Positions 1-28,679 of a DNA stretch of 34,102 nt are shown piece by piece. The notes beneath the pieces were generated by a model, which searched no databases, had not been told where the DNA came from, and was given only the letters and a program-made list of their open reading frames with translations. Position 1 is the stretch's first letter. Each line of letters starts with the position of its first letter. The DNA comes from a bacterium (GTDB lineage Bacteria > Zhuqueibacterota > Zhuqueibacteria > Thermofontimicrobiales > Thermofontimicrobiaceae). The stretch covers positions 1 through 34,102 of the forward strand of contig DSAU01000017.1 of NCBI GenBank assembly GCA_011046315.1. Reading direction: 5' to 3'. Position numbers and translations under genes: made by a program.

Positions 1-633
1 CCAGCGATTTTGATCCCAATAATCCAATTCGTCTTTCCATTGAAAAGTGAAATTATGGTCGGTACCGGTGTTGCCTGTGCCCGGAGTGTAGGAAGCATAG
101 CTAATCCAGTCGTAATAGGCGAACAAAGGCAGGACTCGCTCATCGAAATGTCCCACCCAGGGTTCCCAATTGGAAATCCAGAGATTCATCATAATTTTTT
201 GACTGTATCGAAATTCGGCGATGTGTTGCTGTGTCTGGCGATAAACTTCGTTTCCATCAATAAACCAGGCAATATAGTCGGGCGTCCATTCAAAGGCGTA
301 ATTATGAAAATCGTCATGGGTATTAAAATGGACATATTGGTGACTATTGCGCCATTTCTGTCCCGGAGCAATTGAGGTGACCAGAACATCGTGATCGTAT
401 CTGCCCAGGATTTCAAAATCAATTTCATTCCATTCATTGGTCGAGGTGATTTCATGATAGGTGAAAAAGGAGGAGATAATCCCATCGCCTTTGGGAGGTT
501 TGTATCTGGCTTCAAAACGACCGTAGATGTACGACTCTTTGGTGCGATATTCGGCGCCCTTGTAATCTTTGGCAAAACTGTTTCCCTGATAAAAGAATAA
601 CATAACCAAAAAAATGATGAGTTGTTTTTTCAT
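1..633 (-). CDS. GH16 endo-beta-1,3-1,4-glucanase (lichenase), Fibrobacter-type permuted topology; C-terminus lies beyond the left window edge
   Basis: Absent from the supplied ORF track because there is no stop codon inside the window. Hand translation of the minus strand from ATG 633..631 gives 211 sense codons down to nt 1: MKKQLIIFLVMLFFYQGNSFA/KDYKGAEYRTKESYIYGRFEARYKPPKGDGIISSFFTYHEITSTNEWNEIDFEILGRYDH...HNYAFEWTPDYIAWFIDGNEVYR...MMNLWISNWEPWVGHFDERVLPLFAYYDWISYASYTPG...QNRW. It has a signal peptide, an ExDxE catalytic motif (EIDFE) near the N-terminus and an EWTPxxIxWxxDG block. From memory these match the Fibrobacter succinogenes 1,3-1,4-beta-glucanase. Confidence 0.85.
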   Translation of the reverse strand, partial: MKKQLIIFLVMLFFYQGNSFAKDYKGAEYRTKESYIYGRFEARYKPPKGDGIISSFFTYHEITSTNEWNEIDFEILGRYDHDVLVTSIAPGQKWRNSHQYVHFNTHDDFHNYAFEWTPDYIAWFIDGNEVYRQTQQHIAEFRYSQKIMMNLWISNWEPWVGHFDERVLPLFAYYDWISYASYTPGTGNTGTDHNFTFQWKDELDYWDQNRW

Positions 634-12156: not shown

Positions 12157-12179
12157 AGGACAAGTTAATAACTTGTCCT
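12157..12179. promoter_or_regulatory. 23-bp perfect palindrome AGGACAAGTTA-A-TAACTTGTCCT, 42 nt upstream of the TonB-dependent receptor ATG
   Basis: It has 11-bp perfect arms around a single central base. The plus strand has a T7 run 8 nt after it, and the minus strand is T-rich after it (gcagttctatttt). It could be an operator or a bidirectional terminator-like hairpin. Confidence 0.4.
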
Positions 12180-12202
12180 ACAGTCCGTTTTTTTGATGCA
12201 GG

Positions 12203-12228
12203 AGTGCGGTGCTGTTATACACCGCACT
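12203..12228. other. GC-rich hairpin AGTGCGGTG-N8-CACCGCACT
   Basis: It has a 9-bp perfect stem (6 G:C pairs) and an 8-nt loop, with no U-tract on the sense (minus) strand. Confidence 0.4.
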
Positions 12229-12251
12229 ATGCTTGCAATCCATAAACAGCG

Positions 12252-12410
12252 TGTCCATGAACCTTAAATTTTTTTAGTTTAATGTCTTTGCGAACCGTAA
12301 TTTCCCGAAGCATTCTTCAACATAAGTCACTATAATTAAAGAGATTGCTTCTCCTGCTAAAGCGGGATCGCAATGACATGTATTTTTTATTTTTTATGAG
12401 TTCATGGACA
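12252..12410. mobile_element. 159-bp MITE-like unit with 11-bp perfect terminal inverted repeats (TGTCCATGAAC / GTTCATGGACA) carrying a GTCATTGCGA...GAAGCAATCTC repeat
   Basis: The TIRs are at 12252..12262 and 12400..12410, extendable to about 14/16 matches. The internal repeat is at 12341..12377 (reverse orientation). The unit is non-coding and lies in the 323-bp spacer between the CBM gene and the receptor gene. Confidence 0.4.
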
Positions 12411-12438
12411 GCCTGTAAAGGGATTGTACTCCACTAAA

Positions 12439-14940: not shown

Positions 14941-15092
14941 TACTCGCTCCTTTGATTTAAATTTGGTTAAATAAGTTTGGATAATTAGTACTGCTTCGTC
15001 AGATCTAGCATCGAAATCTCCTTCAAATCACCCCATCTGCTGATTTCTGATAGAAAAAGGAACTTAGTTTTAGTCCCCATTTTTAAAAGAGG

Positions 15093-15204: not shown

Positions 15205-16833
15205 TTAAAAGAACCGTGTATATAGAAAGATAATGGTAGCTACCAATAAAATTGACAAACCGATGTTAATTTTGGTCCAGGTTGGGTTTCGACTCTCGAT
15301 CATTTCTGTGAATTCAGTTTTTACCTCATGCGCAGTGGCAAAGGTCAACCCGGTAACTCTTTTCTTTTCAGGAGAACTGGTCATCAGGCTGACTAAAATG
15401 AGTATGCTGGCTGAAACAATAAACAGGAAGATGGCAAAATGGAGAAAATTTGCCTCTGCGACAAATTGAAGGAACGAGCCTTCAATTTTGCCTGCTTTAT
15501 AGAGCAATTCAACAACCAGGCGAAATGCCCCAATGATCGCTCCTGTAATCAAAGACCAGATCGCTCCTTTGCCGTTGACTCGTTTCCAAAGAATTCCTAA
15601 GATGAACACCGCTGCAATCGGTGGGCTGATATACGCCTGAACGCTTTGTAAATAAATATAAATTTGTGAGCTGATATATTTGATGAAAGGAACCCACATA
15701 ATACCCAGAATCACAAGCACCGTGGTTGCCAATCTTCCCACCAACACCAATTCTTTTTCTGAGCTATTGGGACGAAATTCACGATAAAAATCCATGGTAA
15801 ATAAAGTAGAGCTGCTATTAAAACAACTGGCGAGTGACGAGATCAATGCCGCCAACAGGCTGGCGATTACGATACCTTTGATGCCTGCGGGAAGCAACTG
15901 ACTGGCGACCAATGATGGATATGCTTTATCGCCAATATCAGGATCATTAAAATAAGCATAAGCGATAACGCCGGGCAGCACCAGGATGAAAACCGGAAGA
16001 ATCTTCAAAAAGCCGGCGAGAATGGTACCAGTCCTTGCATGATTGATATTCTTCCCACCAAGCACTCGCTGGACGATATATTGATCAGTACACCAATACC
16101 ATACGCCCAGAATCGGCGCTCCAAAGATAATACCTGTCCAGGGAAAGTCCGGATCAGATAACGGCTTGAACATGCTGAAAAAATCTACCGGTACTTTTTC
16201 CTGCAATCCGGAAAATCCGCCAACTTCCTGCAAACCGAGAATTGTGAGCGTCGTTGCTCCCAGAATCAAAACAGAAGATTGTAGCACATCGACATGAACG
16301 ATTGCCTTAAGTCCGCCGGCAATGGTATATATTCCAGCTACAATGACCATCACGATGGCTGAGGTGGCAATATCCCAGCCTAAAATTTCATGCAATAACA
16401 GCCCGCCAGCAAACAATGTGACTGATATTTTGGTGATTACGTAAGCGACAATCGAAACGCTGGTAAGGTACATACGGCTGGATTTATTGTAGCGGCGTTC
16501 CAGAAATTCTGGCATTGTAAAGACGCCCGATTTCAAATAAAAAGGTACAAAGACCCAGCCCAGGATCAACAAAATAAAACAGGCGATCCATTCAAAATGC
16601 CCGACTGCCAACCCCCGACTTGCGCCTGAACCAGCCAGACCGATAAAGTGTTCGCTGGAAATATTTGAAGCAAACAAAGAAGCGCCAATCGCTATCCAGC
16701 CGACACGCCTGCCCGCAAGAAAATATTCGGTGCTGCTTTTCTCTTTTCTGGAGAAATAAAATCCAACTGCAAATAAAAGTGAAAAATAGATCAGAATAAA
16801 AGTGATATCCAACGGGGCCAAATTTTGAAACAT
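15205..16833 (-). CDS. sodium:solute symporter family (SGLT-like Na+/sugar cotransporter)
   Basis: 542 aa with about 13-14 hydrophobic helices. The N-terminal SSS signature reads EYFLAGRRVGWIAIGASLFASNISSEHFIGLAGSGASRGLAVGHFEW. SD GAGGGAGG lies upstream of ATG 16833. Confidence 0.9.
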   Translation of the reverse strand: MFQNLAPLDITFILIYFSLLFAVGFYFSRKEKSSTEYFLAGRRVGWIAIGASLFASNISSEHFIGLAGSGASRGLAVGHFEWIACFILLILGWVFVPFYLKSGVFTMPEFLERRYNKSSRMYLTSVSIVAYVITKISVTLFAGGLLLHEILGWDIATSAIVMVIVAGIYTIAGGLKAIVHVDVLQSSVLILGATTLTILGLQEVGGFSGLQEKVPVDFFSMFKPLSDPDFPWTGIIFGAPILGVWYWCTDQYIVQRVLGGKNINHARTGTILAGFLKILPVFILVLPGVIAYAYFNDPDIGDKAYPSLVASQLLPAGIKGIVIASLLAALISSLASCFNSSSTLFTMDFYREFRPNSSEKELVLVGRLATTVLVILGIMWVPFIKYISSQIYIYLQSVQAYISPPIAAVFILGILWKRVNGKGAIWSLITGAIIGAFRLVVELLYKAGKIEGSFLQFVAEANFLHFAIFLFIVSASILILVSLMTSSPEKKRVTGLTFATAHEVKTEFTEMIESRNPTWTKINIGLSILLVATIIFLYTRFF

Positions 16834-16866
16834 ATCCCTCCCTCAAAATTTTAATGTTTTTAAAAT

Positions 16867-16882
16867 GGCAATTATTATACCA
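16867..16882 (-). promoter_or_regulatory. promoter upstream of the symporter gene that reads both as sigma-54 -24/-12 (TGGTAT-N5-TTGCC) and as extended -10 (TGgTATAAT)
   Basis: Minus strand reads cgTGGTATAATAATTGCCattttaaaaacattaaaattttGAGGGAGGgatATG. GG and GC have the canonical 10-nt separation, and the GC lies about 35 nt upstream of ATG 16833. Confidence 0.5.
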
Positions 16883-16956
16883 CGTTATTTAGAACTTTTC
16901 ACCTATTATTTTTTTTAGACTTATGTTTATTTGAAATCGCAATTGGAGCAATTCAC

Positions 16957-16972
16957 TTATTATTTTAATAAT
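16957..16972. repeat. 16-mer TTATTATTTTAATAAT (copy 1), shared with the GH5 upstream region
   Basis: It is identical to 23857..23872 and contains the inverted repeat ATTATT-TT-AATAAT. It lies 74 nt upstream of the TGG of the promoter at 16882. Confidence 0.6.
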
Positions 16973-17084
16973 TGGCTATTATCAAAAAGATAACGCAAAA
17001 GTTTATTAGCGATAATCATCACAAGCCAATTGCTAATCGCCCGGTATCCAAATGACTTAATCACCCGGCTACCCAATTACTGAA

Positions 17085-19346
17085 CTATTTAAAACTAAAG
17101 GTAAATTTCTCTTTCAAACCGCCGATCATCACTTCAAATTCGCCGGGCTCCACCACGGGTTTATTATCTCTTCCAATAAATGAGAGGTCTTTTTGATTCA
17201 AAACAAAACTAATCGTTTTTAATTCACCTGGTTTCAAAGCTACTTTTTCAAATCGCTTCAATCTTTTTACAGAAGGGGTCACTGAGGCATAAAGATCACT
17301 CAAATAGAGTTGAACCACCTCTTTTCCTGCCCGGTCACCAGAATTTTTCACCTGAACTGAAATCGTCAACAACTCATCTTGGTGTATCTCTTTTTTATCG
17401 ATCTTTAAATTGCTGTAATCAAAGCTGGTATAGCTCAACCCAAATCCAAACGGAAATTGAGGATTATATCGACAATCGAGATTATAATTTTCACTGTATT
17501 TATGATCGTAGAGAGTGAGATCATTTGGATAGCGGGGATAGGTAATCGGCAGTTTTCCGCTGGGATTGCAGTCTCCAAATAGCACATTGGCAACGGCAGG
17601 TCCACCTTCCATACCCGGGAGAAATGCCATCAAAATTCCATCAGCTTTATCTACGATTTCTCTGATAATTCGGGGCCGTCCTTCGACCAGCACCAGCACT
17701 ACTGGCGTTTTTGTGGTTGCGATAGCCGAGACTAAATTCAATTGCACGGCAGGCAGCGTTAAATCGAGGATGTTTCCTGGCGTTTCACAATAGGTTTTCT
17801 CTCCAATACAGACGATCGCCACATCCGCATTTTTTGCCGCTTCGACCGCTGCTGGAATGTCGATTTCTTCATCAACTGATGTTCCTGGCTCATAGATTAC
17901 ATTAGATTCACCGATTTTCTTTTGAATCGCCTGCAAAATCGTAAACTTATTTTTGGGGTATAAATCTTCACGATCTCCCTGCCAGGTAATGGTCCAGCCG
18001 CCATTTAAATAAGATAACAAATTTGCCGTGGGACCTGTGACCAAAACTTTTTTGTTTTTTGCCAACGGCAATGTCTGGTTATTGTTTTTCAACAATGTGA
18101 TCGATTCCTGTGCCGCTTGCAGGTTGACTTGCTGGAATTCTTGGCAAGCGAATCGATTGTTCAATGATTTATCAGGATATGGGTTTTCAAACAAACCCAA
18201 TTTAAATTTTACTTTTAAAATTCTGCCAACTGCTTCATTAATTCGGGATTCGGGAACTTTGCCGTCTTTGACTAATTCCAATAATAACTCATAAAAACTG
18301 TAATCCAACGGCACCATGCTCATATCAATCCCTGCCATCACCGCCATCTTTACCGCATCTTTTTGAGAAGCAGCTACTCTCTCGCGCTCGTGCAAATTTT
18401 TAATATCGGACCAGTCCGAGACGGTAAATCCCTTAAAACCAAGCTCATTCCGCAATAACTCTGTCAGATAAAAATAACTGGAATGAACCGGAACACCATT
18501 GATTTCTGAAGAATTAACCATTAATGTATGAGCGCCAGATTCGATGGCAGCCTGGAAGGGGGGCAGAAAATATTCTCGCAGCATTCGCTCGGGAATCCAG
18601 GCGGGCGTCCGATCTTTGCCTGTTAATGGGAAACTATAGCCAAGATAATGTTTCATACAAACCGCTACTTTGTCGTTCGCACCGATATTGTTTTCATCGC
18701 CTTCCTGACCCTTCACATAAGCGGCGCCCAGGGTTGCGGCAAGATAGGGATCTTCGCCAAAGGTCTCCCAAAGTCGAGACCAGAGCGGTTGCCGTCCAAC
18801 ATCAAGCACGGGATTGAAATTCCATAGGATACCGCTGGCGCGGACCTCATAAGCTGTAATCTCACCATTTTTTTTCATCAGTTCAGTATTCCAGGTCGCT
18901 GCCATCCCAATATTTTGGGGGAAAAGTGTCGCATCTTTGGTATAACTTGCTCCATGAATAGCATCGATGCCATAGATGATCGGTATTTTCAATCGTGTCT
19001 CTTTGGTCGCAACGTCCTGAATAGTAGTGATAATCTTCTGCCAATGATCCAATGGATGAGCTGATGTTCCCACATTTAATATCGAGCCAACATTATATTT
19101 CACAACTGCCTGGCGCAATTTCTGCATATCCAACTCGACTCGATCTTCAGGCTTAGCACCATCAATAGTTAAGATCTCAATCGAAATCTGGGTCATCTGA
19201 CCGATCTTTTCTTCAATAGTCATACTGGATAGCAAGTCATCAATTTTTCTATCCAGCTTTTTAGTTTCTGATCTGGCTGGATTTGAAATTAAAAATAAAA
19301 AGCTCATTAAATAAGTCATCAAAATTGGCCACAGTTTTCGCTTCAT
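17085..19346 (-). CDS. GH3 beta-glucosidase (BglX-like), periplasmic (signal peptide, no T9SS tail)
   Basis: Motifs seen: MTIEEKIGQMTQ, GIDAIHG, KHYLGYS, and GFKGFTVSDW (the nucleophile Asp context). A C-terminal FN3-like domain follows (VQVKNSGDRAGKEVVQLYL). AAGGAG SD upstream. Confidence 0.9.
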   Translation of the reverse strand: MKRKLWPILMTYLMSFLFLISNPARSETKKLDRKIDDLLSSMTIEEKIGQMTQISIEILTIDGAKPEDRVELDMQKLRQAVVKYNVGSILNVGTSAHPLDHWQKIITTIQDVATKETRLKIPIIYGIDAIHGASYTKDATLFPQNIGMAATWNTELMKKNGEITAYEVRASGILWNFNPVLDVGRQPLWSRLWETFGEDPYLAATLGAAYVKGQEGDENNIGANDKVAVCMKHYLGYSFPLTGKDRTPAWIPERMLREYFLPPFQAAIESGAHTLMVNSSEINGVPVHSSYFYLTELLRNELGFKGFTVSDWSDIKNLHERERVAASQKDAVKMAVMAGIDMSMVPLDYSFYELLLELVKDGKVPESRINEAVGRILKVKFKLGLFENPYPDKSLNNRFACQEFQQVNLQAAQESITLLKNNNQTLPLAKNKKVLVTGPTANLLSYLNGGWTITWQGDREDLYPKNKFTILQAIQKKIGESNVIYEPGTSVDEEIDIPAAVEAAKNADVAIVCIGEKTYCETPGNILDLTLPAVQLNLVSAIATTKTPVVLVLVEGRPRIIREIVDKADGILMAFLPGMEGGPAVANVLFGDCNPSGKLPITYPRYPNDLTLYDHKYSENYNLDCRYNPQFPFGFGLSYTSFDYSNLKIDKKEIHQDELLTISVQVKNSGDRAGKEVVQLYLSDLYASVTPSVKRLKRFEKVALKPGELKTISFVLNQKDLSFIGRDNKPVVEPGEFEVMIGGLKEKFTFSFK

Positions 19347-19392
19347 GATTCGCTCCTTAAATTATTCTCGGTACTGTAAAAGACGCCCAGTT

Positions 19393-19433
19393 AAATGCCT
19401 TTATGCATTTCAGTGAATCGCATCAAGGCGATT
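19393..19433. other. two tandem 6-bp/6-nt-loop hairpins between the two GH3 genes
   Basis: AAATGC-CTTTAT-GCATTT (19393..19410) and AATCGC-ATCAAG-GCGATT (19416..19433). Neither is followed by a U-tract. Confidence 0.3.
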
Positions 19434-19446
19434 TACTGGCAGATAT

Positions 19447-21639
19447 TCAATTATCTGTCAGTTCAAAACTTCCCTCAAGTCCTTGCACCGAACTCGGTCC
19501 AACCCATATTTTGAAAACACCGGGCTCAACAACATACTCCAGGTTTTGGTTGTAAAATCCCAGCTCGTTGGTATTAAGTTGAAATTCCACTTTTTTCTTT
19601 TCATTCGGCTCCAAGCTGATGCGCCGGAACCGTTTTAACTCTTTGACGGGGCGCGTCGTACTTGCCACAACATCCTGAACGTAAAGCTGGACAATTTCAT
19701 CTCCAATGCGATCGCCAATGTTTTGAACTTCAACTCCGGCAAATATTTTGGTCATGTCATCAGTTTTTTCGACGGTAACTTTCAAATTGCTGAATTTAAA
19801 CTTTGTATAGCTGAGACCGTAGCCGAATGGAAACAGGGGAGTTACAGGAACATCCAGATACTTTGAGGTAAATTTATCAGAGCCGGAAGGCCTGCCGGTA
19901 TTTTTATGATTGTAAAAAATCGGCACCTGTCCCACAGTTCGGGGAAAAGTTACCGGCAATTTTCCGCCAGGATTATAGTCGCCAAAAATTACATCGGCAA
20001 TGGCATTGCCAGATTGAACGCCCAACTGCCAGGTCTCCAGAATGGCCGGGATTTTTTCAGCGATCCAGGGGATGGTGAGCGGACGACCATTCATCAACAC
20101 CACAACTGTCGGCGTGCCCGTTTCGTAAACCGCTTTGACCAATTTTTTCTGATAGCCTGCCAGATCAAGTGATGAGCGGCTGGCAGCTTCACCGCTCATG
20201 TCCGCACTCTCACCAACTACCAAAATCGCTGCCTCGACATTTTGGGCAATTTCAACAGCTTTTAGAATTTCCTTTTCTGACCCTCCCTGAACTTCACAAC
20301 CTTTGGTATATCGGATTTTTTCGGTGGGAATTTTTGATTGAATGCCTTCCAGCACGGTTACAACATCGATATCTTTGCCTTCACAATGCCAGCAGCCAAG
20401 CTGATCATGTCGATTGTCAGCTAACGGTCCGATCACAGCTAACGATTTGATGTTTTTATTAAGCGGCAAAAGCTGATTATCATTTTTTAAAAGGACTATT
20501 GATTTCTGAGCGCTCTCCCGCGCCAGTGCTAAATTTTCTTTGCTCAAAACGGTCGTTTTTTCAAATTCCGGATTGATGAACGGGTGCTCAAACAGCCCAA
20601 GCTGGAACTTGATCCGCAATATCCGACGCACGGCTTCATCAATGGTTTTTTCACTTATTATTCCCTGTTTCTCCAGATCTGCCAGATTGTTGGCATAGAC
20701 AAAACCCATCATGTCCATATCCACCCCTGCCAGCAATGCTTTTATTCCTGCCTCGGCGGGTGTGGCGGCAATACCATGATTGAGCAGTTCGCCGATAGAA
20801 TTCCAATCACTGACCACAAACCCTTGGAATCCCCATTCGTTTCGAAGAATCTGTGTCAGGGTAAAGAGATTGGCAGAAGTGGGAACGCCGTTCAATTCAT
20901 TAAAAGCGCTCATAATCGTACCAGCGCCGGCATCAACAGCCACTTTAAAAGGGGGAAGATAAATTTCTCGAAGCGTATTAATGGAAATATCAACGGCATG
21001 GTAGTCTCTCCCGGCCTGGGCGCCGCCATAGGCAACATAATGCTTCGGGCAGGCAACAATAGTGAAGGGATCGTTTAAGCTTTTCCCCTGAAATCCTCTC
21101 ACTTTTGCAGCGGCCAAAACAGATCCCAGGTAAGGGTCTTCGCCATGACCTTCGGCGATCCTGCCCCAACGAGGGTCGCGGGCAATATCGACCATTGGCG
21201 CAAACGTCCAATGGATGCCGCTGGCTGCTGCTTCCCTCGCCGCCATCGCTGATGTTCTTTCCACCAAATCTGGATCCCAACTCGATGCCTCTCCCAGCGG
21301 AATCGGAAAAATGGTTCGATACCCATGAATCACATCAAGACCAAAGATCAATGGTATTTTTAATCGAGATTCCTCGACAGCAATCCGCTGTATTTCATTG
21401 GTTGCTGTTGCACCCTTCACATTCAAAAATGAACCGATTTTACCCTGCTGAATCTGTTGTTTTAAATTTTCATTGTAACCACTAACCTGATGCAGTTGAC
21501 CGATTTTTTCGTCAAGTGTCATCTGCTGAACGAGTGATTCAATGCGATTTTCAATATCGGGGTTGATGAGTGAATTTTGAGCAGTTAAGGTTAATGTGCA
21601 GATGAGAAATAATGGTAAGGTGAATTTTAAAAATTTCAT
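19447..21639 (-). CDS. GH3 beta-glucosidase (BglX-like), second divergent paralog, periplasmic
   Basis: Motifs seen: MTLDEKIGQLHQ, GLDVIHG, KHYVAYGG, GFQGFVVSDWNSI. The C-terminal FN3-like domain reads VEVQNIGDRIGDEIVQLYV. It has a signal peptide and sits only 44 bp after the GH5 gene. Confidence 0.9.
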   Translation of the reverse strand: MKFLKFTLPLFLICTLTLTAQNSLINPDIENRIESLVQQMTLDEKIGQLHQVSGYNENLKQQIQQGKIGSFLNVKGATATNEIQRIAVEESRLKIPLIFGLDVIHGYRTIFPIPLGEASSWDPDLVERTSAMAAREAAASGIHWTFAPMVDIARDPRWGRIAEGHGEDPYLGSVLAAAKVRGFQGKSLNDPFTIVACPKHYVAYGGAQAGRDYHAVDISINTLREIYLPPFKVAVDAGAGTIMSAFNELNGVPTSANLFTLTQILRNEWGFQGFVVSDWNSIGELLNHGIAATPAEAGIKALLAGVDMDMMGFVYANNLADLEKQGIISEKTIDEAVRRILRIKFQLGLFEHPFINPEFEKTTVLSKENLALARESAQKSIVLLKNDNQLLPLNKNIKSLAVIGPLADNRHDQLGCWHCEGKDIDVVTVLEGIQSKIPTEKIRYTKGCEVQGGSEKEILKAVEIAQNVEAAILVVGESADMSGEAASRSSLDLAGYQKKLVKAVYETGTPTVVVLMNGRPLTIPWIAEKIPAILETWQLGVQSGNAIADVIFGDYNPGGKLPVTFPRTVGQVPIFYNHKNTGRPSGSDKFTSKYLDVPVTPLFPFGYGLSYTKFKFSNLKVTVEKTDDMTKIFAGVEVQNIGDRIGDEIVQLYVQDVVASTTRPVKELKRFRRISLEPNEKKKVEFQLNTNELGFYNQNLEYVVEPGVFKIWVGPSSVQGLEGSFELTDN

Positions 21640-21683
21640 CGCATGTCTCCAATATGTTTTATCAAATCAAACCGGCTTATAAT

Positions 21684-23699
21684 TTACTTCTGTAAAATCA
21701 TCGTCTTTGTCAACTGCGCACCATTGACACTGAACTGGTACAGATAAAATCCTGATCCAACATTCTGATCGTAGCGATTGGTGCCATCCCAGGGAATAGT
21801 ATTAAAGCCAGTTTCGAGCAAACCATCAAAAATATTTTTTACAAGTGCGCCATTGAGATTAAAAATTTTTAAATTCACTTGCTGTGGTGTTAATAAAAAG
21901 ACCGGTATCTGTGTGGTCTGATTGAACGGATTGGGATAATTCTGTGCCAGGAAAACTGTGTCCGTCACCTGGTCAAAGTGATAACCTTCCCTGACCGGCG
22001 CTGATTTCAGATGAAACTGCAACAAATTGATATTAAATCCCCCATGGACAAATACCAGCTTTAACGCATGCATGCCTGCTGGAATGCATATATTTTCAAC
22101 AGTCGAAATGGTCTGCCAGCTCTTCCAGCCGCCTGTATTGGGAACAGGAATTGTACTGGTCAATTGTTGATTGTTGAGATACAATTGTAATTTTCCGCTA
22201 CTTCCAATCGATGCCACTCGAAAATCAATGCTATATTCGCCCGAATCCTCCACTATCACAGTAAACAGCAGCCATTCCCCGGTTTCAATATAGCCGACAT
22301 TGTAAGGCGCGCCTTTTGCATCATTGCTGATTTCAATATCAACGCCATCATTGCGATATTTGCCTCCCCGGTTCCACACATCGCCGCTGCCCAGACCATG
22401 TGTATTTTGATAATCGGTGTCGGAATAAGAAACACCCACATTTCCGAAATCGTAATCCACACAATGAATCGTGCCAGGTAGTCGATGGGATTTGTAGGGT
22501 GTGGGTCTGACCCCAAAATCGGAACGTAACAGCGCTTCCAACACATCGGGACGAAAATCACATTTTTCAAGCCGCAAGTTATCCGCCATCAGCAACAGTG
22601 CGGCTGTGGCGTATTCCGTTGTCGGTTTTGATGCCTGTCCGTTCCAATAATCCAGTACGCGTTGGTAATGCGCTATAATGGGTGCGGAGTAGGGACTGGT
22701 TGTGGTCTCGATCTTCTTGTGGGTCCACCAGTTCCAGCCGATATTATTTCTCTCCATCAACTGTACGCATTCATAAAACCAGGTGTTCGAATTTTCACCT
22801 GATTCTCCCAGCCATAGCGGACAGTTTGTCTGACTCCGGATCGTCAAATATTTCTGAATGGAGGACTGGCTATTTTCATTCCAATATTTGTGAAAACTGT
22901 AAACCATATTCACATCGAACGGCGGCGTCAGCAGATTAAAATCGGTAGCGTACCAGTTGCCTTCTATAAAAACAATGTGATTGTTATCGACCTCACGGAT
23001 CGCCTGGGTAATCCGCATGTACAGCGCGCGCAGATCACGATTGGAATAGCCGGGCGGCAATACAGGTTCATTCAGCAGGTCGTAACCTCCGATCCACTCT
23101 TCGGTGGCGTAGCGCTCGGCAATCTTGTGCCATATTTCAACGGTGCGATCCTGGTTTACAGGATTGGTCCAGAGACGCGCTTCTATGCCGTCGGCGTCGC
23201 TGATGTTGTCTTTATTCTGCCCACCTGGCGCGCAATGCATATCAAGGATCAGATAGAGCTTATTTTTCTCGCACCATTCTAACAGCCGATCAATGATCTG
23301 AAATCCCTCTTCCAGATAGACCCCAGGCTGATCCTCTGGTGTCAGCATCCGATAGTTGAATGGCAGCCGAATGGAATTGACACCCCATGAAGCGATCTCC
23401 TGAATATCTTCCTCCGTCACATAATTTTTGATATATTGCTGGTAAAATTGATCCGCATTCTCCTGTCCGATTAGATCAACGATCATGTTTCGAATGGAAC
23501 TCGGCGACCCAAAACCTGGAATGCGGAGCTGATAACCTTCCTGTACCAGCCAGCCGCCCAGTCCAAATCCTCGCAGCAAAATTTTTTCTCCATTGGAGTC
23601 AACGATTTCACGTCCCTGAGTTTTCAAATAAGCTCGTCCGCTCTGTGGGAATAAAATGAGTGTGGTCAAGATTATGAATAAGTATCTTAAAATTTGCAT
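21684..23699 (-). CDS. GH5 endoglucanase with CBM6-like module and T9SS C-terminal domain
   Basis: GH5 motifs: GVNSIRLPFNY, DMHCAPGGQN, GYDLLNEP (acid/base), LWLGESGE (nucleophile). The CBM6-like block reads IHCVDYDFGNVGVSYSDTDYQN..GYIETGEWLLFTV..YSIDFRVAS. The tail is LAQNYPNPFNQTTQIPVFL..GFYLYQFS. The track start is GTG 23723. I prefer ATG 23699, which gives MQILRYLFIILTTLILFPQSGRA. Confidence 0.88.
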   Translation of the reverse strand: MQILRYLFIILTTLILFPQSGRAYLKTQGREIVDSNGEKILLRGFGLGGWLVQEGYQLRIPGFGSPSSIRNMIVDLIGQENADQFYQQYIKNYVTEEDIQEIASWGVNSIRLPFNYRMLTPEDQPGVYLEEGFQIIDRLLEWCEKNKLYLILDMHCAPGGQNKDNISDADGIEARLWTNPVNQDRTVEIWHKIAERYATEEWIGGYDLLNEPVLPPGYSNRDLRALYMRITQAIREVDNNHIVFIEGNWYATDFNLLTPPFDVNMVYSFHKYWNENSQSSIQKYLTIRSQTNCPLWLGESGENSNTWFYECVQLMERNNIGWNWWTHKKIETTTSPYSAPIIAHYQRVLDYWNGQASKPTTEYATAALLLMADNLRLEKCDFRPDVLEALLRSDFGVRPTPYKSHRLPGTIHCVDYDFGNVGVSYSDTDYQNTHGLGSGDVWNRGGKYRNDGVDIEISNDAKGAPYNVGYIETGEWLLFTVIVEDSGEYSIDFRVASIGSSGKLQLYLNNQQLTSTIPVPNTGGWKSWQTISTVENICIPAGMHALKLVFVHGGFNINLLQFHLKSAPVREGYHFDQVTDTVFLAQNYPNPFNQTTQIPVFLLTPQQVNLKIFNLNGALVKNIFDGLLETGFNTIPWDGTNRYDQNVGSGFYLYQFSVNGAQLTKTMILQK

Positions 23700-23743
23700 T
23701 GTTTGTTTTCCATTGTTTATCACTTATCAATTCTGAAATATCT

Positions 23744-23758
23744 ACAAGAATTAAGCCA
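23744..23758 (-). promoter_or_regulatory. weak sigma-54-like element TGGCTT-N5-TTGT upstream of the GH5 gene (-12 GC replaced by GT)
   Basis: Minus strand reads atcTGGCTTAATTCTTGTagat, about 45 nt upstream of ATG 23699. The -24 half is good, but the -12 half lacks the near-invariant GC. Confidence 0.2.
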
Positions 23759-23856
23759 GATTCAAACGACAAATATAACAATAAAAATTTTAAAGGATTA
23801 TATAGTGCTGGGTGTTTTTAAAGATGTGATTAAATTATCATTGTGATAATAATATG

Positions 23857-23872
23857 TTATTATTTTAATAAT
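23857..23872. repeat. 16-mer TTATTATTTTAATAAT (copy 2)
   Basis: It is identical to 16957..16972 and lies 98 nt upstream of the TGG of the sigma-54-like element at 23758. Confidence 0.6.
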
Positions 23873-23922
23873 AGAGGAATTGAAAAATTAAAATCTCATC
23901 AATCAAACCAATCGAAGAAATT

Positions 23923-23940
23923 TGCAGATTCGAATATGCA
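23923..23940. promoter_or_regulatory. 18-bp near-palindrome TGCAGATTCGAATATGCA (16/18 symmetric), UAS-like
   Basis: TGCA-N10-TGCA with a perfect ATTCGAAT core. It lies just downstream of the regulator gene stop and about 165-180 bp upstream of the element at 23744..23758. Confidence 0.3.
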
Positions 23941-23956
23941 CTACTTGAAACTATAT

Positions 23957-25414
23957 CTATTTCAATCCCAGTTCTTTGCACATTCGATGATAATTCGGCG
24001 GCGCCAGCCCCAGCTTCCGGGCCGCTTCCGCATCGGATGAGGTATGATCCCGCACAAAGCTAAAATATTCCCGTCTTACTTTTTTCTCGATTTCACGCCA
24101 GGGTTCGATGCGTTGTGAATCCCACAGATCTAATCGGTTCTGGCTTTGATATGGATTAAGTCCCGTTTTTAGCCCCAAAGCCTTCTGGACATCGTTTTCA
24201 TCGAGGGTTTTTTTGCCGATAAAAAGCAGCCGTTGGATTACATTTTGAAGCTCCCGAACATTTCCATGCCAGGAGTAATTCACCAATGTAACCAATGCTT
24301 TATCATTCAAAGTCGGAGCTGCCCGATTCATGTCTTTGCTGAATAAATCCATGAAATATTCGATCAATAACGGGATATCTTCTTTTCTTTTTGACAATGG
24401 CTCGATATATAGCGAAACGACATTTATACGATAGTAGAGGTCTTCTCGGAATCGCTTTTCACGAACTTCCTGTTCGAGATTTTTATTGGTAGCAGCAATG
24501 ATCCTCACATCAACTTTTAATTTTTGAGTTCTGCCAATTTTGTCGATTTCTCCCTCCTGAAGAACGCGCAGCAAAGTGGATTGGGCATTAAGCGGTAATT
24601 CAGTAATTTCATCTAAAAAAATTGTGCCATGATTGGCAACTTCAAACAAGCCCAGCTTTTTCGATTCGGCGCCTGTAAAAGAACCCTTTTCAAAACCAAA
24701 TAATTCACTTTCAATCAAACTATCGGGCAAACTACCGCAATTGATAGGGACAAAATTTTCCAATTTTCGTCTTCCTGTATAATGAATATTTACAGCCACC
24801 AGCTCCTTGCCGGTACCCGAAGAACCAGCAATCAAAGTGTTGGCGTCGGTAGCTGCACACTGTCGAATCTGTTCCTGTAATTTTTGAATGGAAGGTGAGA
24901 CTCCAATGATCTGATGTTTCGATAAAATATCGTTGATATTATTTAATAACTTTTTGTTAGATCGCAACCTTTCTTCTTCCAGCTTTTTCTTTTCGAACGC
25001 ATTAAAAATGCTTAAAATAAAATCGGTAGGCTGGTAGATATAATCTTCGATATCACCCGGGTATTTAGTGCAATACCAGGTTGCGCCCGCTTCCAACAGG
25101 CTGTTGGCAAATTCATAATCGGTCATGTTAATGGTCATCTTGGTGACAACGATGATCTGCAGCGTGGGATTTATTGTTTTTATTTTGCGAATCAGGTTTT
25201 CGCCCATGATTCCGCCTGTGATCTGATAGTCCATAATAACGACATCAAAGGATTTGCTGCTTTGCTTCAACAAATTTAAGGCTATTTGACCATTGGAGAC
25301 AACCTCCTTAATTTGAATCCGATCCGAAAAGGGTTGAACGGTCTTTCGAATTCGCTGAACATCGAATTCTTCGTCCTCAATTAGCAAAACGTTTATTTTC
25401 TGGTTTGATAGCAT
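23957..25414 (-). CDS. sigma-54-dependent response regulator (NtrC family: REC + AAA+ sigma-54 activator + Fis-type HTH)
   Basis: REC domain: INVLLIEDEEFD..FDVVIMDYQITGG..IVVTK. Walker A is GSSGTGKE and Walker B is TIFLDEI. The sigma-54 contact loop is ESELFGFEKGSFTGA, a GAFTGA variant. The C-terminal HTH reads AARKLGLAPPNYHRMCKELGL. Confidence 0.9.
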   Translation of the reverse strand: MLSNQKINVLLIEDEEFDVQRIRKTVQPFSDRIQIKEVVSNGQIALNLLKQSSKSFDVVIMDYQITGGIMGENLIRKIKTINPTLQIIVVTKMTINMTDYEFANSLLEAGATWYCTKYPGDIEDYIYQPTDFILSIFNAFEKKKLEEERLRSNKKLLNNINDILSKHQIIGVSPSIQKLQEQIRQCAATDANTLIAGSSGTGKELVAVNIHYTGRRKLENFVPINCGSLPDSLIESELFGFEKGSFTGAESKKLGLFEVANHGTIFLDEITELPLNAQSTLLRVLQEGEIDKIGRTQKLKVDVRIIAATNKNLEQEVREKRFREDLYYRINVVSLYIEPLSKRKEDIPLLIEYFMDLFSKDMNRAAPTLNDKALVTLVNYSWHGNVRELQNVIQRLLFIGKKTLDENDVQKALGLKTGLNPYQSQNRLDLWDSQRIEPWREIEKKVRREYFSFVRDHTSSDAEAARKLGLAPPNYHRMCKELGLK

Positions 25415-25560
25415 AATACACCTATTTTATTGCCTTTAAAATAACGTGCTTCTGAATAATATGAAAACTGTAAATTTCAAATGAACCAATAGAAAATAAT
25501 AAATTTTTAAAACCAAAAATTTTAAATTCTTACTCCGATTAGTTAGCTTTAGAGTTTGGA

Positions 25561-27048
25561 TTAGTTATGTGGGATGGTAATTTTAAAACAACATCCCCTG
25601 TCCGGTAAATTCTCCACATCCATCTGCCAGCCGCAGCGTTGAGTGGCGATTTCGTAAGCGATATAGCATCCATATCCCGATCGCTGATTTTCATTTTTCG
25701 TGGAAATGTTTTCCAGAAATATCCGTTTGATACCCTGTTCATTTCTTTCCAATAAAGCAGGCAGAATTCCGGTTCCATTATCTGAAATAGAAATTACTGA
25801 AAGGGAGAATTCGCGATGATAGTGGCTTTTAATTTTTATGATGATATTGCTATCGCCTGCATGTTCGATACTGTTTTGAACAAGCGGGTCGATAATCTCC
25901 CATACTACAAATTCATTGACATTGACAATGGGCAAATTTTCATCCAAATCCAAATCAAAAGAGTACTGTTCCGATGTTGTAGAGGTTCTTAGAAAAATGT
26001 TATTAACAACAAAGCGAATTAACTCATTCAAATTTGTTTTAAACAGTGGATTTCTAATAGCGTGAATTGGTGGTTCAAACCATTTCATATCATAAATCAC
26101 ACGAGAGATGAAGTTGGCGTATTTATTCACACGATATTTAATCTCATCAATATTGTCTAACGAAAGCATGCCCAAATCTTCTTTTATAAATCCCATGACC
26201 TTTTCTGCTTTATGATGGGTGTGATAAATTCGTTTGGCAAACAAGACCTCTTTCTGAAGATTGATATGCTCTTTTAATTTTTTTTCTTGCTCCTCAAATA
26301 GCAATTTTTGCGCTTCATTTCGCTCACGAACGGTATAGGATGAGATATAAAACATCGCCAATAAGCCAAAGAAAATGAGCGCGGTAAAAATAAGGCTGGT
26401 TGCATTATAACCCGACATAATACTGCTGGTTACAAATCCAAACGCCGGTGTGATCTTCAGGTATACTGCTCCTGCATACTCACCTTTGGGTACAAACGGT
26501 ACAAAGACATGAAAGGTCTGCCCGCCTTCCAAAATGCTATAAATCTGTTCCGAAGTAATGATTTGTTTTTCTAACTGGTTGTACATGGCAATCGCGGTGC
26601 GATGAGACTGATTCGAAAACGGCAGGTCGTGTTGGTTTTCAAAAGTATGGGCGAAAAGCACCTGCCCGTTATCAATGGCGACAATTTCATCCCCATTATG
26701 GACGAGAATGCACACCTCCTGAACATGGTGCTGTAATAATTGCTGGCTGAGAATAATGTTAAAAGCCTGAATGATCTTACGGGCATCGCCATATTCCAGG
26801 TGGCGGCTTTTCAGGGTCGTTTCCAGAACCATTTCCAGAGAAGTGGCAGTTAAGTTCGCTAATCGTTCAGCAAAATCTCGCTGGTACCACTTTTGTGTCT
26901 CTATTAAAAACTTTTGCAACGATATTTTGTAGACGAATGAAACCAATACCTGAAAAAATATTAGTACGGCTAACAGGATGAGCAAATGTTTTAACTCAAA
27001 ATGGTAACGTTTTAGATTTTTAATAAATCGATTTTTTGGAGTGTTCAT
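25561..27048 (-). CDS. sensor histidine kinase, two TM helices flanking a ~175-aa extracytoplasmic domain, atypical H-box
   Basis: TM1 is about aa 21-40 and TM2 about aa 217-237. A coiled coil (EEQEKKLKEHINLQKEV) precedes the candidate H-box AKRIYHTHHKAEKVMGFIKEDL. The N-box is PLVQNSIEHA, G1 is SDNGTGI and G2 is SGYGCYIAYEI. Confidence 0.8.
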   Translation of the reverse strand: MNTPKNRFIKNLKRYHFELKHLLILLAVLIFFQVLVSFVYKISLQKFLIETQKWYQRDFAERLANLTATSLEMVLETTLKSRHLEYGDARKIIQAFNIILSQQLLQHHVQEVCILVHNGDEIVAIDNGQVLFAHTFENQHDLPFSNQSHRTAIAMYNQLEKQIITSEQIYSILEGGQTFHVFVPFVPKGEYAGAVYLKITPAFGFVTSSIMSGYNATSLIFTALIFFGLLAMFYISSYTVRERNEAQKLLFEEQEKKLKEHINLQKEVLFAKRIYHTHHKAEKVMGFIKEDLGMLSLDNIDEIKYRVNKYANFISRVIYDMKWFEPPIHAIRNPLFKTNLNELIRFVVNNIFLRTSTTSEQYSFDLDLDENLPIVNVNEFVVWEIIDPLVQNSIEHAGDSNIIIKIKSHYHREFSLSVISISDNGTGILPALLERNEQGIKRIFLENISTKNENQRSGYGCYIAYEIATQRCGWQMDVENLPDRGCCFKITIPHN

Positions 27049-27134
27049 TTTGCCAGACCCTTATTGGTACTAAATTAAGCCGTTCGTATTGAAAGAAGTT
27101 TTTCTTTGACAACTTTAATTACAAAATTGTTGCA

Positions 27135-27163
27135 AACATATTTTTCTTGCAGAACTTGTGCAA
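27135..27163 (-). promoter_or_regulatory. candidate sigma-70 promoter for the kinase/regulator genes (TTGCAC-17 nt-TATGTT)
   Basis: Minus strand reads tTTGCACaagttctgcaagaaaaaTATGTTtgc, about 90 nt upstream of ATG 27048. This is a motif match only. Confidence 0.25.
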
Positions 27164-27202
27164 ATAAAATTATTTGATTATACAGATGTTTCAGCTACCC
27201 CC

Positions 27203-27285
27203 GTCATTGCGAGGCATTTTTTAGCCGAAGCAATCTTTTTTAAAGTCAGGAGATTTCCACGCTCCCTGCGGTCGCTCGCAGTGAC
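27203..27285. repeat. two inverted copies of the GTCAYTGCGAG...AATCTC palindromic repeat family
   Basis: Copy A is at 27203..27236: GTCATTGCGAGGCATTTTTTAGCCGAAGCAATCT. Copy B is at 27250..27285, which in reverse complement reads GTCACTGCGAGCGACCGCAGGGAGCGTGGAAATCTC. The pair is flanked by 8-bp direct repeats TTATACAG (27178..27185 and 27294..27301). Confidence 0.6.
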
Positions 27286-27359
27286 GATGTGGTTTATACA
27301 GCAAAAGTGAATAGCTGAGTTGTTTGCATAATCAGTGAAAATTGTGAGCACTATAAATT

Positions 27360-28679
27360 CTATTCGATGAGCACCTGTTTCGATTGGATCAAGCTGGAGG
27401 CCTGCTCTAATGCATTTGAGACCGATTGCTGTTTTTTTATGGCTAAATGCAATTGATATGAGAGGATATCCGAAATTTTTGTATAATCCACCATATAAGG
27501 GCGATGGATACCCCTCTCCATTAAACCACGATAAAATTTGAGATCTGGTTCTTGATCTAAAAATAATGTGTCCTGATAAATCGAATTAATTATTGGTAAA
27601 TAGCCGCCCTGTTGAAACATCATTTTTTGATTTTCGGACAATTGGGTGAATTTAATGAATTTCATGGCCTCATCCTTTTTGCTCGAATGTTTCGAAATCA
27701 TCAAATTCCAACCGCCGAAAACGAATGCTGGTTGTCCCCCTTTAAAATGAGGAAGCGGGGCCATTTTTAAAAACTGGAACTTGCTGGTATCTTCCATTTC
27801 TGTTCGATAGTGGCGCAGAAATCCGGGCCAACCTCTCAAAAAAATACCATCATATTTTAGCGCATGAAGATAACACTGAAACTCATCGTATTTTGTGACG
27901 ATTTCTGGTGTCATCTGGTATTTATGGATCAGATCAACCAATAATTGCAATGATTTTTTACCAGCGGTTGTATTTAATCGCTGCGATTGGCTGTCAAATA
28001 AACTCTGGTTTTGACTGGCTATTCCCTCAACAAAACTGCAAATCAAGCCCTCATAATTGTCGGCGGCAAAAAGATAAAACGGATTGTTCTGGTGAGAAAA
28101 TCTTCGGCTTAAGTTGATGAATTCTTGCCAGGTAATGGATGCTTTCAATTTTTGCTCAATTTCCGCGCCATCGGGCAATGAACTAATAATGTCCTGGCGA
28201 TAATACATCACTCCGATATCAGTATAAAATGGAATTGCCATCAACCGATTTTCATAATAGCAGGATTGTAATGGATATTTCAAGAGTTTATCCCGATCTT
28301 GCTGGGAGAAATAATCATCGAGTGGATGTGACCATCTGGTGAAACGAGGTACCCAAATGATATCAACCGAAAAAACATCAATTCGACTGCTGTTGCTGCG
28401 AAGCGTTCGAGCCAACAGTTCTTTTCGCTCGTTGGTGCTGAATTTGGCGAAAGGAAGATTGATTGGTACAACTTCTATCTTGCCCCGATACTCATTATTA
28501 AAACGATCGATAAGTTGCTGGTGAGCAACTGAAATATTATCAGCAAAATAAACCTTTGTTAAATGATTTTCATTTTGATTATAACCGCCGTTCGGCGTAA
28601 TCATATACGTAACCAGAGCGACAAACGTAAGAATCACCGCCCCGATTAACAGATTTGAACCTTTGAATAGCTCTTTCAT
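27360..28679 (-). CDS. extracellular solute-binding protein (ABC family-1 sugar-binding type), membrane-anchored, with no cognate permease/ATPase in the window
   Basis: 439 aa with an N-terminal TM anchor (LLIGAVILTFVALVTYMI). The SBP-like layout includes KVYFADNISVAHQQLIDRFNNEY..KIEVVPIN, RIDVFSVDIIWVPRF, AIPFYTDIGVMYYRQD and GGWNLMISKHS. It is followed directly by the kinase and regulator genes. Confidence 0.7.
   Translation of the reverse strand: MKELFKGSNLLIGAVILTFVALVTYMITPNGGYNQNENHLTKVYFADNISVAHQQLIDRFNNEYRGKIEVVPINLPFAKFSTNERKELLARTLRSNSSRIDVFSVDIIWVPRFTRWSHPLDDYFSQQDRDKLLKYPLQSCYYENRLMAIPFYTDIGVMYYRQDIISSLPDGAEIEQKLKASITWQEFINLSRRFSHQNNPFYLFAADNYEGLICSFVEGIASQNQSLFDSQSQRLNTTAGKKSLQLLVDLIHKYQMTPEIVTKYDEFQCYLHALKYDGIFLRGWPGFLRHYRTEMEDTSKFQFLKMAPLPHFKGGQPAFVFGGWNLMISKHSSKKDEAMKFIKFTQLSENQKMMFQQGGYLPIINSIYQDTLFLDQEPDLKFYRGLMERGIHRPYMVDYTKISDILSYQLHLAIKKQQSVSNALEQASSLIQSKQVLIE

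Follow-up and report, generated by a model that had tools for sequence, protein, structure and literature searches.

What is the role of an ABC-type sugar-binding protein whose gene is followed by those of a sensor kinase and a transcription activator, and not by those of a transporter? The question arises from three adjacent genes, hereafter the triad, in a stretch of 34,102 nucleotides (nt) from a bacterium of the phylum Zhuqueibacterota (assembly GCA_011046315.1, contig DSAU01000017.1, positions 1 to 34,102; the window). A reading of this DNA made earlier from its letters and open reading frames (ORFs), the sequence-only reading, had proposed that the triad is a three-component sensor feeding sigma-54 promoters of the glycan locus downstream. 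Our analysis supported this proposal through the order and spacing of the triad in about 80 loci, the presence of rpoN in the genome, and the sites at which promoters are paired with palindromes. We put at roughly 0.7 the probability that the triad is a two-component system assisted by a binding protein, with transcription of the neighbouring beta-glucan locus from sigma-54 promoters as its output.

All sizeable ORFs of the window lie on the minus strand. The three ORFs of the triad begin and end exactly where the sequence-only reading had placed them, and ORF, Pfam and model data agreed with its description of a binding protein with an N-terminal membrane helix, a kinase and an NtrC-type regulator:

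27360–28679, minus strand: binding protein of 439 amino acids (aa), SBP_bac_1/CUT1 fold (Pfam, AlphaFold model, Foldseek)
25561–27048, minus strand: sensor histidine kinase, 495 aa (Pfam HATPase_c, model)
23957–25414, minus strand: NtrC-family response regulator and sigma-54 activator, 485 aa (Pfam)

Conservation and composition of the triad

We assessed the conservation of the triad in 80 fetched loci, out of at least 549 species genomes found to encode the binding protein when one genome per species was scanned. The loci carried the labels KSB1, Zhuqueibacterota, Calditrichia, Ignavibacteriota/Melioribacteraceae, Neomarinimicrobiota, and Cloacimonadota. The co-occurrence expected from the sequence-only reading was found, with the gene order kept almost everywhere. 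A kinase gene came after the binding-protein gene in 70 of the 80 loci and an activator gene followed in 62, without exception in the same orientation; among the loci counted as lacking a kinase or activator, most end too early to tell. The gap between the binding-protein and kinase genes had a median of about 12 nt, and 13 of the 70 gene pairs overlapped. The genes after the triad in the relatives were a shifting set encoding a glycoside hydrolase (GH) of family 5, a symporter, a protein with a carbohydrate-binding module (CBM) of family 9, a TonB receptor, GH3, and GH16. The binding-protein family comprised 1470 cluster representatives at E ≤ 1e-3. The kinase family comprised at least 1768 at E ≤ 1e-20, which the source named only "ATP-binding protein", "histidine kinase" or "hypothetical". 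Within the phylum of the window, 56 of 167 genomes encoded the kinase, nearly always in a single copy. A few genomes (G134/G168 and G169) carried a second, diverged copy of the kinase and/or the activator (47–55% identical), perhaps a paralogous sensor of different specificity.

The binding protein matched the Pfam families SBP_bac_1 (PF01547, E = 1.9e-15, 58.1 bits against a cut-off of 26) and SBP_bac_8 (PF13416, E = 4.2e-11, 43.6 bits against a cut-off of 27). Its AlphaFold model (predicted local distance difference test score, pLDDT, 87.5) showed the two-lobe periplasmic binding-protein fold. Foldseek matched the model to the maltose-bound T. maritima MalE3 (6dtq; E = 6e-34, template modelling (TM) score 0.78/0.87) and to the T. 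litoralis trehalose/maltose-binding protein TMBP (1eu8; TM score 0.78/0.84). Both were also matched when the family profile was run against PDB sequences (8e-69 for MalE3 and 1e-60 for TMBP). The N-terminus of the protein carries one feature of interest:

28599–28658, minus strand: N-terminal hydrophobic helix, residues 8–27 (AlphaFold model, homologue N-termini)

The binding protein contains no cysteine and no lipobox; lacking a cysteine, it is not a lipoprotein. Among 79 homologues, a lipobox-like motif occurred in one, and the N-terminal uncharged run was mostly 18–26 residues long, a length more in keeping with a signal anchor than with a cleaved signal peptide. Residues 8–27 are thus a probable uncleaved membrane anchor, as judged from the model and the N-termini of the homologues.

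Four residues of the binding protein, R85, D154, W324, and R393, were invariant across the family. In the alignment their counterparts in the Thermus alpha-glycoside-binding protein (6j9w) are R49, D118, W287, and R356; the mutated residues of that protein were placed by comparing wild-type and mutant (R49A, R356A) PDB sequences. As all four pocket residues are kept, the protein has most likely retained the ability to bind a glucosyl sugar. The highly conserved motif FSTNERK was also considered as a kinase-docking surface, a proposal rejected as the primary reading because R85 aligns with a ligand-binding arginine of solved relatives, which places the motif in the sugar pocket. At 20–29% identity to these relatives, the linkage specificity of the pocket is not readable from the alignment; we infer a beta-gluco-oligosaccharide as the ligand from the neighbouring genes only.

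The only Pfam match of the kinase was to HATPase_c. A profile search of PDB sequences likewise matched just its catalytic and ATP-binding (CA) domain, leaving the dimerization and histidine phosphotransfer (DHp) domain and the sensor domain unclassified. The kinase model (pLDDT 80) begins with a first transmembrane helix, followed by a long periplasmic helix and an alpha/beta domain with strands at 109–125 and 170–199. The second transmembrane helix continues unbroken into DHp helix 1 (204–293), which is followed by a hairpin (294–299), helix 2 (300–322), and the catalytic domain (340–493). In a Foldseek search, the DHp-CA part was similar to WalK (4u7o_B, TM score 0.81) and also to ZraS and HK853. 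This is the class-I kinase layout, a DHp hairpin with a Bergerat-fold ATP-binding domain after it. Two parts of the kinase matter for signalling:

26401–26928, minus strand: periplasmic sensor domain, about 176 aa, about residues 41–216 (model)
26212–26223, minus strand: H276-T-H-H279, candidate phospho-acceptor histidines in DHp helix 1 (conservation, model)

The size of the sensor domain is close to the approximately 175 extracytoplasmic residues given in the sequence-only reading. By the order of its secondary-structure elements in the model (a long helix, then strands with helices between them) the domain is PDC/PAS-like, and it matched no Pfam family at E ≤ 10. Its most conserved stretch is helix 52–76. 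The candidate histidines lie in the model within the continuous helix 204–293, ahead of the 294–299 hairpin, and residues R273, I274, Y275, H276, H279, K280, A281, and E282 were invariant across 31–71 kinase homologues. N392, G425, and the G458-Y-G-C motif were invariant as well, and D423 and G427 were conserved in at least 90% of the homologues. We read the protein as a putatively active kinase with a divergent DHp and a canonical ATP-binding domain, and H279 or H276 as the candidate phospho-acceptor.

The activator contains the domains Response_reg (PF00072, 3.7e-11), Sigma54_activat (PF00158, 4e-68), and AAA_lid_14. The receiver residues E13, D14, D62, T91, and K116 were conserved among 62 homologues. 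Walker A and Walker B are both present, with Walker A conserved. The loop beginning at G244 reads GSFTGA throughout the family, one substitution from the GAFTGA consensus. The C-terminal 30 residues, in the putative helix-turn-helix (HTH) region, were conserved, and no Pfam HTH family reached significance there. The gene rpoN, on which the proposal of a sigma-54 output depended, is intact in the genome; its product, of 483 aa, contains an RpoN box. With at least 28 full-length sigma-54 activators encoded in 4.1 Mb, the genome makes unusually heavy use of sigma-54 regulation.

Promoters, palindromes and the predicted regulon

The sequence-only reading had singled out two intergenic spacers as likely places for the regulator to bind. 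Both (23724–23956 and 16834–17084) carry a -24/-12 element preceded by tandem palindromes, a pairing unique in the genome. We searched the related loci for a strict -24/-12 pattern, TGG[CT]A[CT]-N5-[TG]TG[CT], within 300 nt after the activator gene on the coding strand. It was present in 23 of 57 loci; the controls gave two of 57 for the opposite strand, 0.3% for shuffled sequences, and one of 73 for regions upstream of the binding-protein gene. Alignment of the regions upstream of these promoters yielded tandem palindromes of the form TTATCA-N3/4-TRATAA. At least two palindromes were found in 30 of the 57 post-activator spacers, against three of 73 upstream regions, none of 70 regions inside the kinase gene, and none of 1140 shuffles. 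The palindromes are 15 bp long, and their centres lie 22–23 bp apart, or two helical turns. The distances from the centre of the proximal palindrome to the TGG of the promoter cluster at 58, 68–70, and 78–82 bp, a 10-bp periodicity that would be expected if the activator has to be on the same side of the DNA helix as the polymerase.

In the window, a looser promoter pattern gave three minus-strand matches, one in a coding region and two in the spacers upstream of the GH5 and symporter genes. The same assembly (4.1 Mb) contains 678 matches, among which only these two spacer matches have at least two palindromes 30–230 bp upstream. The sites and their predicted targets are as follows:

23835–23871, no strand assigned: upstream activating sequence of the GH5 promoter, TTATTAAAATAATAA (23857–23871) and TTATCACAATGATAA (23835–23849), centres 22 bp apart (palindrome search)
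23744–23758, minus strand: GH5 promoter, P(GH5), TGGCTT-N5-TTGT (promoter pattern search, recurrence in relatives)
16957–17018, no strand assigned: upstream activating sequence of the symporter promoter, TTATTAAAATAATAA (16957–16971), TTATCTTTTTGATAA (16979–16993), and TGATTATCGCTAATAA (17003–17018) (palindrome search)
16868–16882, minus strand: symporter promoter, P(SSF), TGGTAT-N5-TTGC (promoter pattern search)
17085–23723, minus strand: predicted target operon 1, a GH5-CBM6 endoglucanase with a type IX secretion system (T9SS) tail and two signal-peptide GH3 beta-glucosidases (Pfam, N-termini)
15205–16833, minus strand: predicted target 2, an SGLT-type sodium/glucose symporter (Pfam SSF 6e-95, phmmer)

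P(GH5) lies 84 bp downstream of the centre of its proximal palindrome and about 45 nt before an in-frame ATG at 23699; for P(SSF) the corresponding distances are 82 bp and 35 nt. The -12 element varied with lineage: TTGTA or TTGA in many KSB1/Calditrichia-labelled loci and (G/A)TGCA in Ignavibacteria-type loci, which suggests, at the level of sequence, lineage-specific sigma-54 promoter preferences. A separate earlier note had called the TTGT of P(GH5) defective. The element recurs as TTGTA in many of the KSB1/Calditrichia-labelled loci, and this recurrence makes it look like a lineage habit rather than decay.

Three further observations concern these spacers and their transcripts. An enriched 8–9-mer, ATGTGCAAAGA, upstream of the promoters was rejected as a regulatory site because it is coding sequence for the conserved C-terminus of the activator (MCKE). 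The -24/-12 element of the symporter overlaps an extended -10-like sequence, TGgTATAAT, with a weak -35 (GTGAAA) at 16874–16902; a sigma-70-type promoter is therefore a possible second reading at this site, with the consensus scan overall not above shuffles. A terminator-like hairpin with a T-run at 15078–15058, between the symporter and CBM9 genes, suggests that the symporter transcript may end there, in which case the CBM9 and TonB-receptor genes would be under a separate promoter. Scans for sigma-70 and terminator consensus sequences performed no better than shuffles and, except for this hairpin, were not used.

The gene gaps within operon 1 are 44 and 100 nt and contain no further promoter motif. 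Its GH5 enzyme is similar to CelC-type endoglucanases and to exo-beta-1,3-glucanases, and both GH3 enzymes have a signal peptide and no T9SS tail. The symporter matched human SGLT1 (9e-130) and vSGLT (3e-86) in phmmer searches and is predicted from this similarity to be the inner-membrane importer of the locus. The same evidence fits glucose uptake by an SGLT-type symporter, a route for which an ABC importer would be unneeded.

The genes around the triad were annotated with Pfam, which bore out the earlier description of a T9SS/TonB glycan locus downstream. Upstream of the triad are genes for a TetR regulator, etfBA, and a membrane Fe-S oxidoreductase. Downstream, in order, are GH5-CBM6 with its T9SS tail, the two GH3 enzymes, the sodium:solute symporter, a CBM9 protein with a T9SS tail, a TonB-dependent receptor, a 1163-aa protein, a PorV-like barrel, GH9 with a T9SS tail, a 505-aa protein, and GH16. 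The GH16 gene (minus strand) covers the start of the window (1–633) and is cut by the contig end, so the beta-glucan locus extends past the window. Pfam scans of the large ORFs found no ABC permease or ATPase in the window, and tblastn with the 11 BPD_transp_1 permeases of the genome itself had no match there, in agreement with what the sequence-only reading had noticed. Nor did the Pfam scans find a hybrid two-component system (HTCS), a SusR, or an extracytoplasmic function (ECF) pair in the window. As a side result of the permease search, an SBP_bac_1 gene on another contig (C38, 9089–9940) had no permease match on its contig.

The spacer between the binding-protein and kinase genes is unusually long in the window:

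27049–27359, minus strand: binding protein–kinase spacer, 311 nt, with a short dispersed repeat inserted (gap comparison with relatives, repeat search)

Insertion of the repeat accounts for this length when compared with the median gap of the relatives. The repeat is about 36 nt long, GC-rich, and of the type GTCA.TGCGA...GCAATCTC. Its 36-nt core lies at 27203–27238 with a partner copy at 27250–27285, and six other copies occur in the genome, on other contigs. It looks like a small dispersed element of the repetitive extragenic palindromic (REP) or miniature inverted-repeat transposable element (MITE) kind. A unit similar to the spacer repeat was also seen at 12164–12438, between the CBM9 and TonB-receptor genes.

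Signalling route and alternative readings

Under the preferred reading, beta-glucan would be cut outside the cell by the T9SS-secreted glucanases GH5, GH9, and GH16, and the oligosaccharides would enter through the TonB-dependent receptor. In the periplasm the two GH3 enzymes would yield glucose, to be imported by the SGLT-type symporter. Anchored in the inner membrane through its N-terminal helix, the binding protein would bind a small periplasmic glucosyl sugar; a di- or oligosaccharide intermediate is the most likely candidate and glucose itself a possible one. A membrane-tethered periplasmic protein is well placed to sample such intermediates. Through a presumed contact with the periplasmic domain of the kinase, the binding protein would alter kinase activity. 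The kinase would autophosphorylate on H279 or H276 and pass the phosphate to D62 of the activator. The activator would then assemble on the TTATCA-N3/4-TRATAA palindromes, of which two or three lie some 80 bp upstream of each -24/-12 promoter, and remodel sigma-54 RNA polymerase. GH5-GH3-GH3 and the symporter would thereby be switched on, a positive sign of regulation that we infer.

Several points weigh against this route. The whole evidence base consists of sequence, structure models, and comparative genomics. The DHp of the kinase matched none of the H-box families HisKA, HisKA_2, HisKA_3, and His_kinase at E ≤ 10. The closest solved relatives of the binding protein have trehalose, maltose, sucrose or glucose as ligands, and not beta-linked sugars. 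The -12 element of P(GH5) is TTGT and not the canonical TTGC; it is conserved in relatives and putative in function. No palindrome-plus-promoter site was detected at the genes for the CBM9 protein, the TonB receptor, the 1163-aa protein, GH9 or GH16, so the predicted direct regulon comprises GH5-GH3-GH3 and the symporter. The 311-nt, repeat-bearing spacer may uncouple the expression of binding protein and kinase in the genome of the window. Finally, the triad module can split or lose a part. In locus L034, the binding protein is followed by the activator, without a kinase, ahead of two GH16-CBM6-T9SS genes. In locus L018, from the GTDB family of the window genome, the binding protein and kinase lie between araA and a peptidase gene, without glycan genes, and the orthologue of the activator (68% identical) lies at the edge of a different contig.

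We weighed three other explanations. The binding protein could be the transport component of an ABC importer whose other genes lie elsewhere, with no signalling meaning in its location next to the kinase. Its membership of ABC family 1, its intact sugar pocket, and the several ABC permease pairs in the genome speak for this. Against it, in about 70 loci from several phyla the kinase gene comes directly after the binding-protein gene, and the two often overlap; a permease gene is nearby in only one of the 80 loci (L074). Most other ABC permease genes of the genome share a contig with a binding-protein gene of their own, none has a palindrome-plus-promoter site, and glucose import in the locus falls to the SGLT-type symporter. 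Taken together, these findings make a pure transport role very improbable. The signal could also be free glucose, or trehalose, maltose or another alpha-glucoside, instead of a beta-glucan fragment, so that the system would report general sugar availability. The ligands of the closest solved relatives, the retention of all four residues mutated in the Thermus protein, and the presence of a glucose symporter among the targets are in keeping with such a signal. The neighbours in the window and in related loci, however, are the beta-glucan enzymes GH5, GH3, GH16, GH9, GH30, and GH116, and no alpha-glucan enzyme was found among them; we hold this second explanation to be doubtful.

According to the third, the PDC-like periplasmic domain of the kinase is the primary ligand sensor and the binding protein only modulates it. 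Modulation could mean that sensitivity is raised, as CuaD does for CuaS in a cellobiose system of Ruminiclostridium cellulolyticum, or that the kinase is held off until the ligand arrives, in the way described for CBP with ChiS in Vibrio. The domain is a folded alpha/beta domain of a kind that binds small ligands in other kinases, and the arrangements in L034 and L018 show the parts to be separable, the former having no kinase and the latter no adjacent activator. In CuaDSR, moreover, the kinase-regulator pair by itself still perceives cellobiose (PMC10384115). On the other side, conservation in the sensor domain peaks on a surface of its long helix and not in an obvious pocket, and the binding protein, with its invariant sugar pocket, is no less strongly conserved than the kinase. 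We consider primary sensing by the kinase unlikely; it is a variant of the binding-protein-assisted reading and not an exclusive alternative to it.

Relation to known systems

Uncultured bacteria of the Fibrobacterota–Chlorobiota–Bacteroidota (FCB) group weigh heavily in polysaccharide turnover in sediments, hot springs, and digesters. We see an even chance that the triad is the standard regulator of beta-glucan loci in those FCB phyla that are without Bacteroidia-type regulators, namely Zhuqueibacterota/KSB1, Calditrichota, Ignavibacteriota, Marinisomatota, and Cloacimonadota. It would then be an ABC-type binding protein permanently recruited as a membrane-tethered receptor that docks on a kinase with an unclassified DHp, and its regulon would be readable from a helically phased code of palindromes and sigma-54 promoters. 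If this is true, one compact and widespread module would explain how beta-glucan degradation is switched on in many uncultured FCB bacteria. Since the module brings predicted DNA sites, a regulon, and residues to mutate, it could be tested with recombinant proteins and no culturing.

TMBP (1eu8), MalE3 (6dtq), and the Thermus protein (6j9w) belong to the same sub-class of binding proteins as the triad protein (profile E-values of 8e-69 to 1e-41, TM scores of 0.77–0.87) and share pocket residues with it. They serve ABC importers and are 20–29% identical to the triad protein, which is anchored by a transmembrane helix and encoded beside a kinase, without a transporter. The regulators of Bacteroidota polysaccharide utilisation loci are hybrid two-component systems, SusR, or ECF sigma/anti-sigma pairs. 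As in the triad, a periplasmic sensor for oligosaccharide intermediates is encoded beside a glycan locus with a TonB receptor. The protein families and the output are nevertheless entirely different, the triad sensor being split over three proteins with a sigma-54 output.

LuxP-LuxQ of Vibrio signals through LuxU to the sigma-54 activator LuxO. Here too, a periplasmic binding protein on a membrane kinase controls an NtrC-type sigma-54 activator. The Lux pathway differs in being a phosphorelay with a hybrid kinase and LuxU, in its autoinducer-2 ligand, in its genes not forming one triad, and in its small-RNA targets.

CuaD-CuaS-CuaR is a three-component system for cellobiose, in which CuaD binds the kinase and senses a product of cellulose degradation, and which controls the cellobiose ABC operon cuaABC-cbpA (PMC10384115). 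Like the triad, it has a dedicated sugar-binding protein, apart from the one used for transport, encoded beside a class-I kinase and a regulator. CuaD is a lipoprotein of a Gram-positive cell, whereas the anchor in the triad is a transmembrane helix. To our knowledge CuaR is not a sigma-54 activator; the output of the triad is sigma-54, and import in its locus is by a TonB receptor and an SGLT symporter.

AioX-AioS-AioR of Rhizobium NT-26 and Agrobacterium, with its counterpart ArxXSR, is an arsenite-sensing three-component system (PMC5908839, PMC6011840). Its genes, like those of the triad, lie together and specify a periplasmic binding protein, a histidine kinase in the membrane, and a sigma-54 activator of the AAA+ type. 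AioR binds a conserved site upstream of the RpoN promoter of the adjacent catabolic genes (PMC5908839), and the same is predicted for the triad activator. AioXSR differs in its ligand (an arsenic oxyanion), its target (an oxidase), and its taxa (Proteobacteria); the triad occurs in FCB phyla and its targets are glycoside hydrolases and a symporter. No AioX-named chain was present among the 60 PDB matches listed for the binding-protein family profile, so we regard AioX as an analogue and not as a detectable homologue.

The sequence-only reading had held the coupling of a binding-protein sensor to a sigma-54 activator to be undescribed. This was too broad in view of AioXSR (PMC5908839), and the part that stood is that the carbohydrate family of the triad was not found in the literature. 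We found no description of this carbohydrate-sensing, sigma-54-coupled family, including in phylum-level papers on KSB1/Zhuqueibacterota. The precedents AioXSR, CuaDSR, and LuxPQ narrow the claim of novelty to a carbohydrate-sensing FCB family: the three-component type is known, and the family of the triad is new to the literature as far as found. If our reading is true, the triad would add a carbohydrate example to the small set of pathways that lead from a binding protein to sigma-54, together with a new sequence class of histidine-kinase DHp.

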